Both the position numbers and the translations under genes were made by a program. Below, piece by piece: positions 15,835 to 41,550 of a DNA stretch of 48,152 bases (its first letter is position 1; each line of letters starts with the position of its first letter). The notes under the pieces are model-generated. The model searched no databases. It was not told the DNA's origin and was given only the letters and a program-made list of their open reading frames with translations. Source of the DNA: an uncultured Selenomonadales bacterium. Its GTDB lineage: Bacteria > Bacillota > Negativicutes > Selenomonadales > Selenomonadaceae. The stretch covers positions 1 to 48,152 of the forward strand of contig CAMVJN010000001.1 in NCBI GenBank assembly GCA_947167825.1, read 5' to 3'.

Positions 15835-16386
15835 CTATGCCCAAGCCCAAGAAAAACCTTTATGCGTATGTCGTTTCCCGTTGCAACAATCGCTTATATG
15901 GGCTTGGTTTCCGTGAATCTGCCTTGCCGCTTCGCTTGCGCTTTCGTATATCTCCAACAATTCTCCATGCCCAAAACATTTGACACGTCTTTTCTGCTTT
16001 TCTACTGCTGCCATAATTGATTTTGTAACCGCTTTTCGCATATTGTCAGTAAACACCGTCAGTCCTGTTTTCCATGAATGTTTTTGATTTTCTGACGGAG
16101 TACACCACTCTATATTATCAACATGATTATTTGTCTTGATCCCGTCTTTATGGTTAATCCACTTCTTCCCTTCGGCATTTTTAAGAAACGCCAAAGCGAC
16201 CAATTTATGAACATGAATTGTTGTTTTTTTATGTTCTGCGGTACATAGACCTACCGAATAATAACCGCGAGTAACTGACGGTTTAAGGATTTTTGAGTTA
16301 TGCCTAACCCGGCCATAATCGCTTACTTCATACTCTTGCAAGCCTTCAATCGGCACCCTTTTCCAAGATTCCGTCACCATCAACAA
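15835..16386 (-). CDS. HNH homing endonuclease (NUMOD4 + HNH_3 type).
   Basis: It has WKRVPIEGLQEYEVSDYGRVR, HKLVALAF, INHKDGIKTNNHVDNIEW and a C-terminal IENR-like GFSW. It is AT-rich relative to its neighbours. Confidence 0.85.
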   Translation of the reverse strand: MLMVTESWKRVPIEGLQEYEVSDYGRVRHNSKILKPSVTRGYYSVGLCTAEHKKTTIHVHKLVALAFLKNAEGKKWINHKDGIKTNNHVDNIEWCTPSENQKHSWKTGLTVFTDNMRKAVTKSIMAAVEKQKRRVKCFGHGELLEIYESASEAARQIHGNQAHISDCCNGKRHTHKGFSWAWA

Positions 16387-17416
16387 CCTCCTTTATACGT
16401 TTTATAACCCAATTTGCCACAGGTTGCGCCATTCCGTTGCCTAGTGCTTTGTACCTCGCCGTGTCCGAACAAGTCTTGTCGTCGATCAGCGTATAATTAT
16501 CTTCTAGCCCCTGCAATCTTTCTGCTTCCAGCGGCGTCAAGCGTCGCACGGTTTTTTGACATACAAGCGTTTCGCTTCCGCCGCCCATTCCGCCGCCGCT
16601 TTCTTTCTGTGCCCCAGCTACGGTGTCTTTGCGAAACGCCCCAAAGCTAGATTCCACAAATACCTCGTCGGCGTGCGTCATGTCGTAGACGGCGACCGTC
16701 GGTCTCTGTGTCCCGCTACATTCCGCCGTCAACGTCGCGGCCGTCTCGATTGCATAGCCGATGCTTGCGGTTGGACCATTCCCCGCCTTGAACCCTGCGG
16801 CGATTATATCCGGGCCGCGATCCACACACGGCGAACCGTCTGCCCTTGCCGTCAGACTTCGGGCTTTATCGGGGACGAACAGCACCTGATCATTCGTATT
16901 TGCCGCCAGTGTCAGGCTTCGCTCCCTGCTGACAAGAGCACCTTTCCCCCCCCCCGGCGCATCCGGCGCGCATCCGTACGACGCTTGCGCCTCCAGCACC
17001 ACTTTCAGTTCCGTCGGCAAATCCTTCTCGCGCCGCTCTGCTCTCCGAAGAATCCCCTCGCACGCTCTCGCGCTCAAATAATATTTCTCCGGCACTGTGT
17101 CCTGTAAAATCTGCGACAAGAAAGATTCGACGGCGACGTTGGGGGACGCCCCAATATTGCGCGTCAAGCACTCTCCAGGCAAGCGAACCGCCATCCCATT
17201 CGACCATTCCGGCGTCTGCCCATTTGTTATTCGCAGGCATTGGAATCTCGGCCTCTGTGATCTCTTCAAGCACGGCTCTAAAATCCAATCCTTTGTTACT
17301 GCTAAACGCTCCGGGCACGTTTTCCCAAACGAAAAATCTTGGAGCCTGTCCCCCACTGGCACGCCGCATATCTCGAACAAGTCTAATTGCATCTCGGAAC
17401 AATCCGCTACGTTCAC
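16346..17416 (-). CDS. C5 cytosine DNA methyltransferase, C-terminal part (target-recognition region, motifs IX-X). It lies in the +1 frame relative to 16890..17690.
   Basis: It contains RRLTPLEAERLQG, YKALGNGMAQPV and KYYLSARACEGILRRAERR. Confidence 0.8.
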   Translation of the reverse strand: MNVADCSEMQLDLFEICGVPVGDRLQDFSFGKTCPERLAVTKDWILEPCLKRSQRPRFQCLRITNGQTPEWSNGMAVRLPGECLTRNIGASPNVAVESFLSQILQDTVPEKYYLSARACEGILRRAERREKDLPTELKVVLEAQASYGCAPDAPGGGKGALVSRERSLTLAANTNDQVLFVPDKARSLTARADGSPCVDRGPDIIAAGFKAGNGPTASIGYAIETAATLTAECSGTQRPTVAVYDMTHADEVFVESSFGAFRKDTVAGAQKESGGGMGGGSETLVCQKTVRRLTPLEAERLQGLEDNYTLIDDKTCSDTARYKALGNGMAQPVANWVIKRIKEVVDGDGILEKGAD

Positions 17417-17690
17417 CCTTCAATCCCTCCTGCTTTCCCGCGACGGATAAATCCTGGCATGGGCTTCCCGCGCAGACAATATCCACAGGCCACAACTTCG
17501 CGCCGTCCAGCTTCGTAATGTCGCCAAGCTGAACCGTGTTCGGGAAATGCTTTGCCGTCACCGCGCACGGGAAAGGCTCAATCTCGCTTGACCAAATCGG
17601 CTCGACTCCTGCGTGTTGTGCCGCAAGCTGCCAGCCGCCGATTCCATCGAACAAACTTCCTAGCGTCAAAATCTCGCACCATCCTTTCAT
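16890..17690 (-). CDS. C5 cytosine DNA methyltransferase, N-terminal catalytic part (motifs I-VIII).
   Basis: It contains LFDGIGG, GSPCQD, FVWENVPG and GVPQRRRRIFLVADF. Confidence 0.85.
   Translation of the reverse strand: MKGWCEILTLGSLFDGIGGWQLAAQHAGVEPIWSSEIEPFPCAVTAKHFPNTVQLGDITKLDGAKLWPVDIVCAGSPCQDLSVAGKQEGLKGERSGLFRDAIRLVRDMRRASGGQAPRFFVWENVPGAFSSNKGLDFRAVLEEITEAEIPMPANNKWADAGMVEWDGGSLAWRVLDAQYWGVPQRRRRIFLVADFTGHSAGEILFERESVRGDSSESRAAREGFADGTESGAGGASVVRMRAGCAGGGERCSCQQGAKPDTGGKYE
16946..16955. repeat. Homopolymer C10 on the plus strand (G10 in coding sense) inside the methyltransferase frame overlap.
   Basis: Counted directly from the sequence. Confidence 0.95.
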
Positions 17691-17917
17691 GCGCCCTGCG
17701 TGGCGGGGGATTTACACTTTGGGTGTAGTTCCTCGCCAAAAAAAATATTCATATCATACGACGGGAACGCTCTTTTGAATTTCTGCAAGAAGTCGCGGCT
17801 CAAATTACGCTCTCCATATTCTACTTTTTCGTAGAAAGACTTTGAAACGCCTAGCCGCGTCGCCATCTCATTTTGAGAAAGCCCATTTTCCAGCCGAAAC
17901 CGCTTTAATGTTTCCAC
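17687..17917 (-). CDS. Cro-like XRE-family HTH regulator.
   Basis: A GTG at 17917 follows AAAGGAGG. The HTH is LSQNEMATRLGVSKSFYEKVEYGER, and the gene is divergent from the repressor. Confidence 0.75.
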   Translation of the reverse strand: METLKRFRLENGLSQNEMATRLGVSKSFYEKVEYGERNLSRDFLQKFKRAFPSYDMNIFFGEELHPKCKSPATQGA

Positions 17918-17939
17918 TTTTGCGCCTCCTTTCTTTATC

Positions 17940-18036
17940 ACACTCACAGTGTAGCACACATAGAGTGTAATTGCAATACCCAAATTTTATTTTTTTACAC
18001 TCATTGCGTAATTCCTAGAAATTGCACTTTTCGTGT
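17940..18036. promoter_or_regulatory. Genetic-switch region with four 13-bp ACAC-N5-GTGT-type operators and divergent promoters.
   Basis: Operator sites are 17940..17952 (ACACTCACAGTGT), 17956..17968 (ACACATAGAGTGT), 17997..18009 and 18024..18036. The minus-strand promoter has TTGCAA (17976..17971), 17 nt, then TACACT (17953..17948). The plus strand has an extended -10 TGATATTAT at 18036..18044. Confidence 0.55.
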
Positions 18037-18067
18037 GATATTATCCTATTAAAGGAGGCGATTATAT

Positions 18068-18457
18068 ATGATGCTCAAAGAATTAAGGGACACACGGAAT
18101 TTGACACAAGCAGAACTTGGGGACGCTCTAAACATATCCCCCTCTACAATCGGAATGTACGAACAAGGACGACGCGAACCAAGCCTTGACGTACTCCAAA
18201 AACTCGCCGACTATTTCCACGTCACCACCGACGAACTTCTAGGCCGGGACGCGCCGAAGCCTATCATGGAGGAAATGACGCGCCTCTTGCTTGCGCCCCC
18301 GGACGGCGTGGCAAACCCGACCAAGGAAATGCTGGACGACTATTCCAGTCTGTCGGCGGAGGGCAAAGAAAAAGCGCGTTCCTACATTAAATACCTCGCA
18401 AGCGAGGACAAGGAAGCGCGCATCAAAAAAGACTATGGGAAATCAACAACGGCATAG
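18068..18457 (+). CDS. cI-like XRE-family repressor.
   Basis: The HTH is LTQAELGDALNISPSTIGMYEQGRREPS. It lies next to the integrase and is divergent from cro. Confidence 0.8.
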   Translation: MMLKELRDTRNLTQAELGDALNISPSTIGMYEQGRREPSLDVLQKLADYFHVTTDELLGRDAPKPIMEEMTRLLLAPPDGVANPTKEMLDDYSSLSAEGKEKARSYIKYLASEDKEARIKKDYGKSTTA

Positions 18458-18474
18458 ACTAGGGAGGGGAAACC

Positions 18475-19491
18475 ATGAGAAACCCTAACGGCTACGGCTC
18501 CATCTACAAACTCCACGGCGCACGCCGAAAGCCTTTCGCCGTCTGTGTCACGGCAGGCCGGAAACCGGATGGCCGTCTCGTGCGGAAATATATCGGCTAT
18601 TACGAGACGCGGCGGGACGCGCTTTCTGCCCTTGCAGCCTATAACGATAACCCGTTCGACGTTCGCGCTCGTGACGTTACTCTTTTGGAGCTATGGGAGA
18701 AGTGGAAAGAGTATCGAACCGGGCGCGGGAAGAAGCTGCCGGACAACTACAAAAACGCCTTTCGTCATTGCGCCGCTCTCCACAACAAACGATTTATAGA
18801 CATAACCACAGCGCAAATCCAAGCCACTGTGGATAACGTATCATCCATGCCACATACCGCCGTCCATGTTCGGATGGTTTTCGGGCTGCTATATAAGTAC
18901 GCTAAAATCATAAACCTTACAGCGTCAAACCGAGCGCAAGGCGTAGAAGTCCCCAAACTCCCAAAAAGCACAAAGCACAAGCCTTTTTCCGCGGACGAAT
19001 TGAAAAAGCTATGGCAAGACACAGACGACTTCGGCGTCCAGCTTGCCCTTGTCTATTGTTATACCGGCCTGCGTCCATCCGAGCTAATAGAAATGCGCCG
19101 CGAGAACGTACACCTGAAAGAAAGATATATGATCGGCGGAATGAAAACCGAGGCGGGAATCAACCGCTGCATACCCATAGCGGAAAAGATTGTCCCGCTG
19201 ATTGAAGGCTTTCTGGCCCGCCCGTCCGAATATCTATTGACCGCCCCGGACGGGACACACCCGCAGGATTTACAAGCGTTGACCTATAGATATTGGAGGA
19301 AGTCAAAATCCAAAATTGTCCTGGACCACTACCCGCACGACGGACGCCACACTTGCGAAACAATGCTGGACAATGCCCACGTCGCAAAGCGCACAATCCA
19401 GCTCATAATCGGCCACGCCGGGGGAGACGTTGACGCTTTATATACCCACAAGACGCAAGCCCAGTTAATACAGGCGATCAACAAGATATAA
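18475..19491 (+). CDS. int: Tyrosine recombinase / phage integrase.
   Basis: It has TGLRPSEL, HDGRHTCETML, IGHAGG and LYTH catalytic-region motifs, and an N-terminal SAM-like domain. Confidence 0.95.
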   Translation: MRNPNGYGSIYKLHGARRKPFAVCVTAGRKPDGRLVRKYIGYYETRRDALSALAAYNDNPFDVRARDVTLLELWEKWKEYRTGRGKKLPDNYKNAFRHCAALHNKRFIDITTAQIQATVDNVSSMPHTAVHVRMVFGLLYKYAKIINLTASNRAQGVEVPKLPKSTKHKPFSADELKKLWQDTDDFGVQLALVYCYTGLRPSELIEMRRENVHLKERYMIGGMKTEAGINRCIPIAEKIVPLIEGFLARPSEYLLTAPDGTHPQDLQALTYRYWRKSKSKIVLDHYPHDGRHTCETMLDNAHVAKRTIQLIIGHAGGDVDALYTHKTQAQLIQAINKI

Positions 19492-39275: not shown

Positions 39276-41550
39276 CGGGAAGCACCTCCGGGATAATCGA
39301 AAGCACCGTCATGGGGAACGGCGCGTCCTGCTTTATCGTCAGCATCAGCGTATCTTCGTAATTCGCCTGCGGCAGCGTAATCTTCTTCTTGCCGCTGTAA
39401 AGCGCCACAGGCGTTCCCCACGCCTCCGTGCTGCGCCATTTGATTTCATCCATGGCGTTATCCGCAAAGCCAAATTTGCCGCCGACCGTCTCTTTGAACA
39501 TGACCATCATGTTTTGGATTCGTTTCTTCCTGCTGCCCCATGTGCCGTCCTGCCCGGACATTTCCACCGGCAACGTCTGAATCACCGTGTCATATTCAAG
39601 GCCGACGGATATTTTGGAATACGCATGGTCGAGCGTCAGAGTGCCGTTGTTGGCCACCGTCGTATCTGCCAGCTTATGCCCGTCGGCAAGGACCTGAACT
39701 GTTTTTCCTGCCAGCCATGTAAGGCCAGGAATCGTGCTGACTGCGGAGCCGGAGTAAGAAAGGCCGCTGTCTACATAAAACTGGTCTGCTGTGTCGTCGG
39801 AAATAAACCGCGCCGACATTTGCTCCACGCAATAATCATTCCCGCGCTTTATGACCGCCCAAAGCTCGTCCTCGTTGTTGCCGGATATGGAGCATACGTC
39901 GATAAACTGCCCCTGCGTCGTGTGCCTGTGCCATGCGTAAACGTCCTGCTCTTTTACATACGTCATGCCCAAAAGAACGCCGTCCTCGCGCACACACCAT
40001 ACAACGGAATCAGGGATTTGCTGATACGTCATGCCGACGATGCTGTGGCCTTCAAACAAATGCGACGCCAAAATAGACACGTCGTCGCCCGTGTATTTGT
40101 CTACGTCATAGCTATATGCCAAGTCTCGGACAATGCCGCCGTGCTGCTGGACGTAGACGATTCGCCCGCCGATAACCACCGGCGTAAGGTCGTTGATACC
40201 GCGATATTCCTGCGCCCGTGCCTGCTGGTTCGTCGGCGTGAAGTTTTCTCCGCCGCCCGATACCCGATACTCGCCGCCGCTCGTCAGCATGACGATCTCG
40301 CCAAAAGAAACGATTGCCTTGATACCATTCATTTGCCCGCTGGCAAGCGTGCCGGTGATTGCATCATCATCCGCAAGCGGAACAGACTGCCCGAAATTGT
40401 AATAATCGCCGCTCTTGCTTGCCCAATATGTTTGCGGCTGCGCCTTGCTCCCGGCAAATACAAGTCTGTCCTCAAAGAAACCAATCGCCTGCGGATAGCC
40501 TGCCGTCTCGCTCCACGCCTGCAACGCAAAATCTTTTGTGGCCGTCGCCGCGCCAAGCCGCTTTGTGACTGTAGCATCCACAGACGTTGGGGTATTGTAA
40601 TTCGTGATCTGCGCTATGCCATAGTAGTCTTTGGCAAAGGCTTGTATCGTCACATATCCGCGCTGGTTCTCATCCTCGCCCGTGCGTTTCTCTGTATTAA
40701 ACTCCGTGCTGGTCACGCGGTAATCTCGAATCACATCATCGTCATTGGTAAATGTCATGTTGTAATTCTGCGAACGGTTGCCGCTTTGCTGTTTGATTTG
40801 CACCCATGCGCCGGAATCACTCCGTTTTTCAACGATAAACGAGCCGTCCCAAAAGCCAAAGGATTCAACATAGACTGTGCCGCCGGGGACGCAAGAGACT
40901 TGCAAAGTGTCCTCGTTCGGCTTTCCTTTTTGATATTGTCCCGGGACGGTGTGGCCTATATTGATAGACTGCCCAACCATCGACGACGAGAAATAACTGT
41001 CACTTGTCGTAAGCGTAATATTGGTTCCCGTTGTCGCTGACGGCGTAATTGTTATATCCGTTGTGTTCGGGTCGTCAAATGGACCGTTTGTAATATCCAT
41101 GACCGTATACGACCAGGACGTATTACTGTATCTCGTCAACGTCGCGGGCGGATGGTTCGGATGGACAAGAAACAATACGTCCGCCGACTGCGTATATTTT
41201 ATTTTCGGCAGCTCCGCCTCTGTGTACGGCGTGCTGACTTCCACAGGGCTGCTCCCGGACGTGATGATACCGCCCTGTGTAAAAAAGCGCACTTTCCCTG
41301 CCGTAAACTCCAAGATATAGTTCTGCTCCGTATTGTACGAGAACGGAATCAGCCGCGCCTTTCGGTTCGACTTCGTACCCGTGATATATCGAAAGCCAGG
41401 TCTCCGCGTCACGCCGCCGTAACGGAGCACAACTGCATTTTGGAGCACAGCGGCGCCAACATCATATTTTTGTAAGTCTGTCCTCCCGTAAAGGGCGGGG
41501 GTAAGCTCCCCGCCCGCAAAGGAGGGTTTTAATTGGTACATCCCCATCAC
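39268..41550 (-). CDS. Tail tubular protein B / nozzle-like protein of 760 aa.
   Basis: The N-terminus FAGGELTPALYGRTDLQKYDVGAAVLQNAVVLRYGGVTRRPGFRYI matches the podovirus tail pattern as I recall it. Confidence 0.6.
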   Translation of the reverse strand: MMGMYQLKPSFAGGELTPALYGRTDLQKYDVGAAVLQNAVVLRYGGVTRRPGFRYITGTKSNRKARLIPFSYNTEQNYILEFTAGKVRFFTQGGIITSGSSPVEVSTPYTEAELPKIKYTQSADVLFLVHPNHPPATLTRYSNTSWSYTVMDITNGPFDDPNTTDITITPSATTGTNITLTTSDSYFSSSMVGQSINIGHTVPGQYQKGKPNEDTLQVSCVPGGTVYVESFGFWDGSFIVEKRSDSGAWVQIKQQSGNRSQNYNMTFTNDDDVIRDYRVTSTEFNTEKRTGEDENQRGYVTIQAFAKDYYGIAQITNYNTPTSVDATVTKRLGAATATKDFALQAWSETAGYPQAIGFFEDRLVFAGSKAQPQTYWASKSGDYYNFGQSVPLADDDAITGTLASGQMNGIKAIVSFGEIVMLTSGGEYRVSGGGENFTPTNQQARAQEYRGINDLTPVVIGGRIVYVQQHGGIVRDLAYSYDVDKYTGDDVSILASHLFEGHSIVGMTYQQIPDSVVWCVREDGVLLGMTYVKEQDVYAWHRHTTQGQFIDVCSISGNNEDELWAVIKRGNDYCVEQMSARFISDDTADQFYVDSGLSYSGSAVSTIPGLTWLAGKTVQVLADGHKLADTTVANNGTLTLDHAYSKISVGLEYDTVIQTLPVEMSGQDGTWGSRKKRIQNMMVMFKETVGGKFGFADNAMDEIKWRSTEAWGTPVALYSGKKKITLPQANYEDTLMLTIKQDAPFPMTVLSIIPEVLPGG

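Follow-up and report, generated by a model that had tools for sequence, protein, structure and literature searches.

The temperate phage in contig CAMVJN010000001.1 (assembly GCA_947167825.1) of an uncultured Selenomonadales bacterium encodes a C5 DNA methyltransferase (C5 methylase) in two overlapping open reading frames (ORFs), with a run of ten G residues at the point where the frames diverge. The stretch analyzed, positions 1 to 48,152 of this contig, is referred to below as the window. The locus is best read as the split configuration of a three-module C5 methylase family of phages and mobile elements, in which an active alpha/beta enzyme would be reached by a one-G change at a slippery junction. 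We assign this reading a probability of roughly 55%. Its main interest lies in a conserved ORF overprinted on the catalytic half of the gene, termed ORF X, and in the existence of two interconvertible architectures.

Three modules would make up the proposed enzyme. The first is a catalytic core, alpha, which carries motifs I-VIII in frame 0. ORF X, the second, is a putative small protein or domain encoded in the +1 frame over alpha and probably translated from its own internal ribosome-binding site. The third comprises the C-terminal recognition segments together with motifs IX and X. Because the end of ORF X and the end of the alpha linker coincide, a single-base change could determine the partner of the C-terminal module: alpha, giving a fused methylase and a free X protein, or X, giving a split enzyme. 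The G10 tract of the window would select the split form, with an alpha chain of 266 amino acids (aa) and a beta chain of 356 aa made separately and most likely assembling into an active methylase, as the chains of M.AquI do. Slipped-strand mispairing on the G run could restore the fused form, and related phages may flip between the two.

The anatomy of the window matches this arrangement. Alpha contains motifs I (LFDGIGG), IV (GSPCQD), VI (ENV) and VIII (QRRRR), followed by an 84-codon tail. Beta runs from the X domain through recognition (target recognition domain, TRD) modules to motifs IX (RRLTPLEAERLQG) and X (ALGNGMAQPV). Both the N-terminal motifs on the first ORF and motifs IX/X on the second identify the product as a member of PF00145, and their distribution over two overlapping ORFs, I-VIII on one and IX-X on the other, is the layout of M.AquI. 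At the sequence level the second chain also has a start of its own, a GTG codon preceded by AGGAGG. In the window, X includes the segments QLDLF, GKTCPE and ESFLSQILQDTVPEKYYLSARACEGILRRAERREKDLP. The G10 tract, which appears as C10 on the forward strand, is the sole homopolymer of at least nine bases in the window and is read as A-GGG-E.. in alpha and as P-GGG-K in beta (CCG GGG GGG GGG, P-G-G-G). An earlier note on this DNA had described both ORFs and their motifs, placed the tract inside the 527-nucleotide (nt) overlap (16890..17416) and predicted that loss of one G would fuse the frames. Translation and the PF00145 matches bear out each of these points, and deleting one G in silico yields a 447-aa ORF reading ...AGCAGGGKGALVSRERS..., in which alpha is joined to the C-terminal half.

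ORF X is present throughout the family. A frame survey around motif VIII covered 71 distinct relatives from viral contigs, metagenomes and genomes (36-80% identity), and all 71 have an open, conserved +1 ORF. This ORF extends at least about 90-100 codons upstream of motif VIII and about 50-70 codons past it, and the +2 frame shuts within 3-54 codons upstream and 4-39 codons downstream of the motif. The +1 frame encodes a conserved peptide, FLSQILQ..VPEKYYLS.KAC.GILRRA.ERGKELP.EL..ALE.Q. X is about 150-160 codons long and ends within a few codons of the position that holds the G tract in the window. The long overlap of alpha and beta thus exists because this conserved ORF is embedded in every family member, fused or split.

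Selection on the +1 frame is evident from a codon alignment of 49 relatives, nearly all of them fused forms. The first 80 codons of alpha show normal periodicity, with a third-position diversity of about 0.5 and a four-fold site diversity of 0.57. In the approximately 45 codons after motif VIII, diversity at the first, second and third alpha-frame positions is about 0.5, 0.25 and 0.1, respectively; four-fold site diversity falls to 0.11, and individual synonymous sites do not vary in 47-49 sequences. Flipped periodicity combined with frozen four-fold sites is the signature of +1-frame selection. Further upstream, single synonymous sites are invariant in 41-49 sequences and map to conserved +1 residues, such as those of QLxLF. 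In at least 36 of the 49 relatives, X has an ATG or GTG start codon that is homologous in position and follows a purine-rich AGGAGG- or AAAGGGG-like site by 6-10 nt. A conserved alternative-frame ORF under selection therefore lies inside alpha, as in genes of the M.EcoHK31I type, with the difference that motif IX lies downstream of X rather than within the embedded polypeptide.

Three other accounts of the +1 peptide were considered. A programmed frameshift after motif VIII is rejected as its main route, since the selection on the +1 frame and the conserved start and Shine-Dalgarno-like site lie about 90-100 codons upstream of motif VIII, where beta proteins begin. A G_GGA_AAG slippery heptamer at the tract is rejected because it sits in the unused +2 frame. 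Chance or codon bias fails to explain the frozen synonymous sites or the periodicity shift, although it could account for part of the upstream openness, where few codon pairs can form +1 stops.

The function of X is suggested by its position. Its C-terminal helical part (..LSQIL....KYYLS.KAC.GILRRA..) would occupy the place in the chain that lies between motif VIII and the recognition domain of ordinary C5 methylases, and this part may therefore act structurally or as a docking element, keeping the two halves together. A Pfam search of X returned zero matches, PF00145 included. Searches of PDB sequences gave a best E-value of 0.31, at chance level, with the single sequence and nothing with the profile. 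Gene callers report X as a hypothetical protein of 125-165 aa, mostly on short contigs. Four predicted proteins of 233-254 aa (P0130, P0137, P0171 and P0211) have methylase motifs I-IV joined straight to X; these are frame-shift products at different upstream points, and chimeric gene models are frequent in this methylase family.

The family occurs naturally in two architectures. The fused form consists of a single-chain methylase and a free X, and the split form consists of alpha with motifs I-VIII and beta with X, the recognition modules and motifs IX/X. Among 91 distinct loci, 51 are fused, with frame 0 continuing from motif VIII through motif IX, and 13 are split, with the X frame continuing into motifs IX/X; a further 11 show several shifts, and in 16 motif IX is absent within range. 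One clade of genomes and metagenome-assembled genomes (MAGs) accounts for 12 of the 13 split loci, and none of the 12 has a G or C run of at least seven bases in the gene. This clade includes Anaerotignum sp. MB30-C6 (a complete chromosome), Lacrimispora defluvii and Anaerovorax sp. IOR16, and Fusibacter paucivorans DSM 12116 has the identical tract-less alpha/beta layout. In the tract-less split genomes, alpha is 220 aa long and ends 32-39 codons past motif VIII. Their beta proteins, of 446-549 aa in the +1 frame, start about 100 codons into alpha and carry X, recognition modules and motifs IX/X, and synonymous sites are frozen in their overlap as well.

Protein collections give the same picture on a larger scale. 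Among 1.84 billion representative proteins, a profile of X matches 5015 clusters, 3727 of these clusters at E-values of at most 1e-10. Many of these clusters are 260-600 aa long with X at residues 1-126, and all ten that were tested carry only the C-terminal segment of PF00145. A search with the beta ORF of the window likewise finds many beta-type proteins covering 83-97% of it, including one cluster of 333 members. The colinearity of the window protein with natural beta proteins continues across the junction, (D/K)xPGGGKGAL, which reads ...KESPGGGKGALIRNEQSLSL... in P0243, ...KDVPGGGKGPLIS... in P0252 and ...PDAPGGGKGALVSRERSLTL... in the window. The tract-less split clade and the thousands of beta-type clusters indicate that split alpha/beta genes sharing a long dual-coding overlap are a natural arrangement, both common and conserved. 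Of the three explanations in the earlier note, a two-subunit enzyme modeled on M.AquI is thus the best supported, with the tract-less layout in 12 genomes and the beta-type clusters behind it; the split does not simply fall between motifs VIII and IX, and the overlap is due to the embedded ORF X, which that note had missed. We infer that the split form is active, given the conservation of tract-less split genes, the precedent of M.AquI and the fragment complementation of other C5 methylases (PMC3404938).

Homolog alignment places the frame junction of the window precisely at the tract. A search with the fused protein finds thousands of relatives, many of them single chains of 400-650 aa covering 96% of the query. 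The nearest intact homologs (P0001, P0002, P0004 and P0005) are 76-79% identical in the alignment and all carry the exact junction string VVRMRAGCAGGGKGALVSRERSLTLAANTNDQVLF / VVRMRAGCAGGGKGALVSRERSLTLAANTNDQVLFVPDKARSLTAR, fused homologs reading ...AGCAGGGKGALVS... at this point. The window X is 72% identical to P0121. The shift at the tract is the sole break in the gene, both frames being otherwise open with all motifs and ORF X intact. A junction far from the tract in a decayed locus, which the earlier note had raised as the outcome that would undo its proposal, is therefore not what the alignment reveals.

Close relatives differ at the orthologous site by single bases. A census within the sub-clade of the window, which compares different lineages at 70-87% identity rather than one population, finds fused alleles with G8C (L001, L003/4, L006 and L122), G5CGGC (L002), G5AGGC (L123) and G9A after GCG (L005). 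Split alleles are G10 in the window, G9C in L118 and, as one allele from two samples, in L119 and L120, and G5AC in L084; every one keeps the beta frame open up to the contig end. A related lineage has the run four codons upstream, at RMR-GG-C, where L050 with G8 is fused and L048 with G9 joins X to the downstream frame. One-G differences between fused and split relatives identify the site as a hotspot at which lineages move between architectures. Some hallmarks of phase variation are present across these lineages: an in-frame homopolymer sets the frame, tract length varies among relatives, and both frames are seen. The slipped-strand switch suggested in the earlier note accordingly stands insofar as relatives one G apart flip between fused and split forms; what the flip alters is the chain that carries the C-terminal half, which is not obviously an ON/OFF effect.

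Several observations weigh against the split alpha/beta interpretation. In the ten codons just before the tract, variation falls mainly on third positions of the alpha frame and VVRMRAGCA is kept, which suggests that the sub-clade has been mostly fused through its history and that its split alleles are recent. Such apparent youth would be consistent with neutral flipping at high frequency, with a phase-variable OFF state or, in the window alone, with a miscalled base. The split state also separates this conserved peptide from the GGGKGALVS segment that it normally precedes. A G run of at least ten is not rare by chance, being reached in 10 of 100 dinucleotide-preserving shuffles, and the G10 itself could be a miscall of G9. 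Structure prediction is silent on assembly: the AlphaFold model of X has a low-confidence predicted local distance difference test (pLDDT) score of 58, and that of beta alone (pLDDT 51) is confident only at the C-terminal helices of X (residues ~100-147) and in the motif IX/X region. A Foldseek search of the beta model against the PDB matched only the motif IX/X region, at E-values above 0.4.

A sequencing or assembly error in the homopolymer would mean that the true tract is G9 and that the gene encodes an ordinary fused 447-aa methylase with ORF X still embedded. Long G/C homopolymers are error-prone on several sequencing platforms. Most relatives found with the fused query are themselves fused, and the peptide immediately before the tract shows alpha-frame conservation. 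Confirmation of G10 from a second copy of the phage is also lacking in public collections: a degenerate-pattern scan around the tract in viral, metagenome and genome collections recovered only other lineages, with none among the genome contigs, and exact look-ups left the alpha ORF and the fused 447-aa protein unmatched and found the beta ORF solely in this contig. Against an error, split alleles recur at the same site in other lineages, and one G9C allele is identical in two independent samples and assemblies. The beta protein of the G10 frame moreover aligns colinearly with natural beta subunits, down to the proline before GGGKG, and no further homopolymer trouble was noticed in the window, though this was not systematically checked. 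Taken together, these points make an error rather unlikely.

Classical ON/OFF phase variation would instead make G9 the ON state, with a single chain, and G10 the OFF state, so that alpha and beta would be inactive here and the phage population would switch its self-methylation. This explanation draws on the abundance of poly-G in the family. Coding-strand runs of at least seven G residues occur at 0.386 per kb in methylase genes versus 0.026 per kb in 340 kb of flanks (about 15-fold), and runs of at least eight at 0.159 versus 0.006 per kb (about 27-fold). The homopolymer has also been kept while neighboring synonymous sites diverged. Poly-G recurs at S-T-G-G after motif IV and in repeated M-S-T-T-G-G-Q recognition segments. 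Frame switches lie at or beside poly-G in most of the loci listed below, exactly at the run in L039, L058, L065, L071, L074 and L048, and, together with a G12 run in Clostridium phage Saumur, mostly lack a sensible two-chain product. Shifts at most other poly-G positions are not expected to yield a working two-chain enzyme, which makes contingency-locus behavior of the family as a whole plausible and keeps the ON/OFF explanation alive. At the junction of the window, however, the shifted frame is the natural beta frame, and tract-less split enzymes are conserved in many species, so that loss of function is not expected; an OFF state is accordingly an improbable description of this locus.

Poly-G runs of 7-10 bases at other methylase sites are found in L039 (3166-3173), L058 (3321-3329), L065 (3318-3326), L071 (3336-3343), L048 (2671-2679), L074 (3319-3326, 3694-3700 and 4583-4591), L047 (4408-4417), L055/L056 (5420-5427) and L066 (five runs). 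In the cultured phage Saumur (ON453901.1, ~41015-41026; L121 2128-2139), the methylase goes out of frame at the G12 run, which falls in the interval from motif VI to motif VIII. Its annotated coding sequence WAK79596.1 ('DNA-cytosine methyltransferase') begins in the X frame and enters the methylase frame at the G12 run, and the N-terminal 191-aa part has no methylase annotation. In several viral contigs, a separate gene immediately following the methylase has a conserved G7/G8 run, CATATCCGA-Gn-AAGTTCGGGATCACC (L010 3815-3822; L016/L017 4687-4693; L032 5502-5508; L058 4692-4698; L060 4310-4316; L062 3073-3079), and may be a second gene that bears a tract. In Selenomonadales MAGs and one viral contig, the methylase genes have coding-strand poly-C of C8 to C11 at a conserved spot, ..TATG-Cn-TCATGGCGCGTGG.. 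(L114 3834-3844; L095 3948-3955; L061 3834-3841). Past a methylase fragment in L078 (1062-1082), a G+C-rich stretch holds adjacent G8, C and G12; the IMG/VR contig is split into loci L068 and L078, and the double G run looks like an assembly problem.

Transcriptional or translational slippage on the G10 tract would allow one allele to yield not only alpha and beta but also a share of full-length alpha-TRD-IX/X chains. Long homopolymers are known to make RNA polymerase slip in other genes of bacteria and phages, and +1 re-pairing of glycyl-tRNA from GGG to GGG would shift ribosomes from the alpha to the beta frame and give exactly the fused protein. No conserved stimulatory element accompanies the tract, whose length and position vary and which many relatives lack, and slippage is not needed to explain the data; it therefore seems a very remote prospect. 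A decaying pseudogene, suggested by a frameshift in a gene whose closest full-length relatives are intact, is the least credible explanation, as the single shift falls at the natural junction and leaves both frames otherwise open, with motifs and ORF X intact.

Beyond this locus, a wider proposal can be offered tentatively. The very large C5 methylase family of phages and mobile elements may be a three-piece enzyme in which X, overprinted over more than 100 codons, is needed in trans or in cis. Poly-G contingency switches might then rewire which chain carries the recognition half, giving mixed architectures and possibly mixed activities or specificities. The two-polypeptide C5 methylase appears here as an architecture widely distributed among phages and mobile elements of Firmicutes and Negativicutes, represented by thousands of protein clusters. 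The alpha/X overlap is among the longer dual-coding stretches seen in bacterial viruses, with selection on both frames. It explains many 'frameshifted' or 'truncated' methylases and many 'hypothetical proteins' of 130-160 aa in current annotation, and it illustrates that homopolymer 'correction' during gene calling, by collapsing frames, can destroy real biology. The locus also offers a testable system for the contribution of a hidden overlapping gene to an enzyme and for a homopolymer that toggles subunit connectivity rather than switching a gene off, and it is relevant to the tuning of self-methylation by temperate phages in the face of host restriction.

The methylase gene adjoins a lysogeny module (17687-19491) consisting of an integrase, a CI-like regulator and a divergent Cro-like regulator, which marks the phage as temperate. 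Past the methylase, the gene order is HNH endonuclease, RecE-like exonuclease and replication initiator, and tail and head-tail connector genes lie on the other side. This layout around the lysogeny module makes the methylase the first gene of the early operon, and since the Cro-like stop overlaps its start (ATGA), it is probably translationally coupled to the Cro-like gene. The HNH endonuclease gene and the end of the beta ORF overlap by 41 nt, and HNH genes adjoin the methylase in the relatives L122 and L123 too; these recurrent neighbors suggest that a mobile endonuclease is associated with the methylase gene.

Table 1. Features of the methylase locus and its surroundings, in window coordinates (an empty strand cell means that none is given)
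Feature	Position	Strand	Remarks
Alpha ORF (ORF1), 266 aa	16890..17690	-	PF00145 profile at 3-160, E 7e-37
Beta ORF (ORF2), 356 aa, +1 frame	16346..17416	-	PF00145 profile at 269-323, E 6e-8
Motif IX (RRLTPLEAERLQG) to motif X (ALGNGMAQPV)	16418..16546	-	In beta ORF
X-encoding part of beta, ~157 codons	16946..17416	-	+1 frame over alpha, from just after motif IV to past motif VIII
Shine-Dalgarno-like AGGAGG	17426..17431	-	9 nt upstream of the X/beta GTG start (17414..17416); read from sequence
Motif VIII of alpha (PQRRRRIF)	17121..17144	-	Identical bases read NVAVESF in X
Stretch with X-frame periodicity	16989..17120	-	Selection signal in the +1 frame, not the alpha frame
G10 tract (C10 on + strand)	16946..16955	-	Three-way junction
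HNH endonuclease, AP2/NUMOD4-like N-terminus	15835..16386	-	PHROG 59, E 4e-42
Cro-like gene, divergent	17687..17983		Stop overlaps methylase ATG (ATGA)
CI-like regulator	18068..18457		
Integrase	18475..19491		

The natural two-polypeptide C5 methylases usually cited are only M.AquI and M.EcoHK31I. Two-chain enzymes of this class and the complementation of C5 methylase fragments are established (PMC3404938, PMC2836561). In M.AquI of Agmenellum quadruplicatum, a large chain carries motifs I-VIII, a second chain carries part of the variable region and motifs IX-X, and both are needed (PMC3404938). The alpha and beta ORFs of the window divide the enzyme at the same place. They differ in that the start of beta lies in the +1 frame of alpha, about 157 codons ahead of the division point, and in that beta has a conserved extra N-terminal domain, X, that is not reported for M.AquI. 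Outside the shared PF00145 motifs, the two systems show no detectable relation in sequence, and the close relatives of the window enzyme are single chains.

M.EcoHK31I offers a second parallel, as its beta polypeptide, which the methylase needs, is internally started and encoded wholly in an alternative frame inside the alpha gene (PMC2836561). Fused members of the present family, with their free X, share this gene layout. The beta polypeptide of M.EcoHK31I supplies motif IX, whereas X lacks all ten motifs and takes the place of the segment that would link motif VIII to the recognition domain. In the window, X is moreover not free but fused to the TRD and motifs IX-X. Our literature searches found neither an overprinted X ORF nor interconvertible fused and split architectures described, which is not proof of their absence.

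The C5 methylases of the Bacillus phages SPR, phi3T and rho11s are multispecific and carry several recognition modules in tandem between motifs VIII and IX. In the window enzyme, the variable region looks similarly modular, with repeated S/T-L-T-A-like segments and gain or loss of modules among relatives. Its short modules, located between the tract and motif IX (16346-16945), include ..SLTLAANTNDQ.., ..SLTARADGSP.. and ..ATLTAECSGTQ.., and alignment shows such modules gained and lost among relatives; the common ..PTLNARMGTGGNQVP.. module is missing from the window. This pattern suggests a multispecific enzyme with shuffled recognition modules. The SPR, phi3T and rho11s enzymes are not known to have an overlapping ORF or a split.

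Phase-variable genes with repeats, such as mod of Haemophilus, Neisseria and Helicobacter and the poly-G contingency genes of Campylobacter, provide the remaining comparison. They share with the present family a homopolymer in the coding region and one-unit differences among close relatives, to which the family adds an enrichment of tracts. In those genes the outcome is ON/OFF switching or a change of specificity in cellular Type I/III systems, whereas here the shifted frame is a second, naturally used frame. The predicted effect in this phage C5 methylase is therefore altered chain connectivity.

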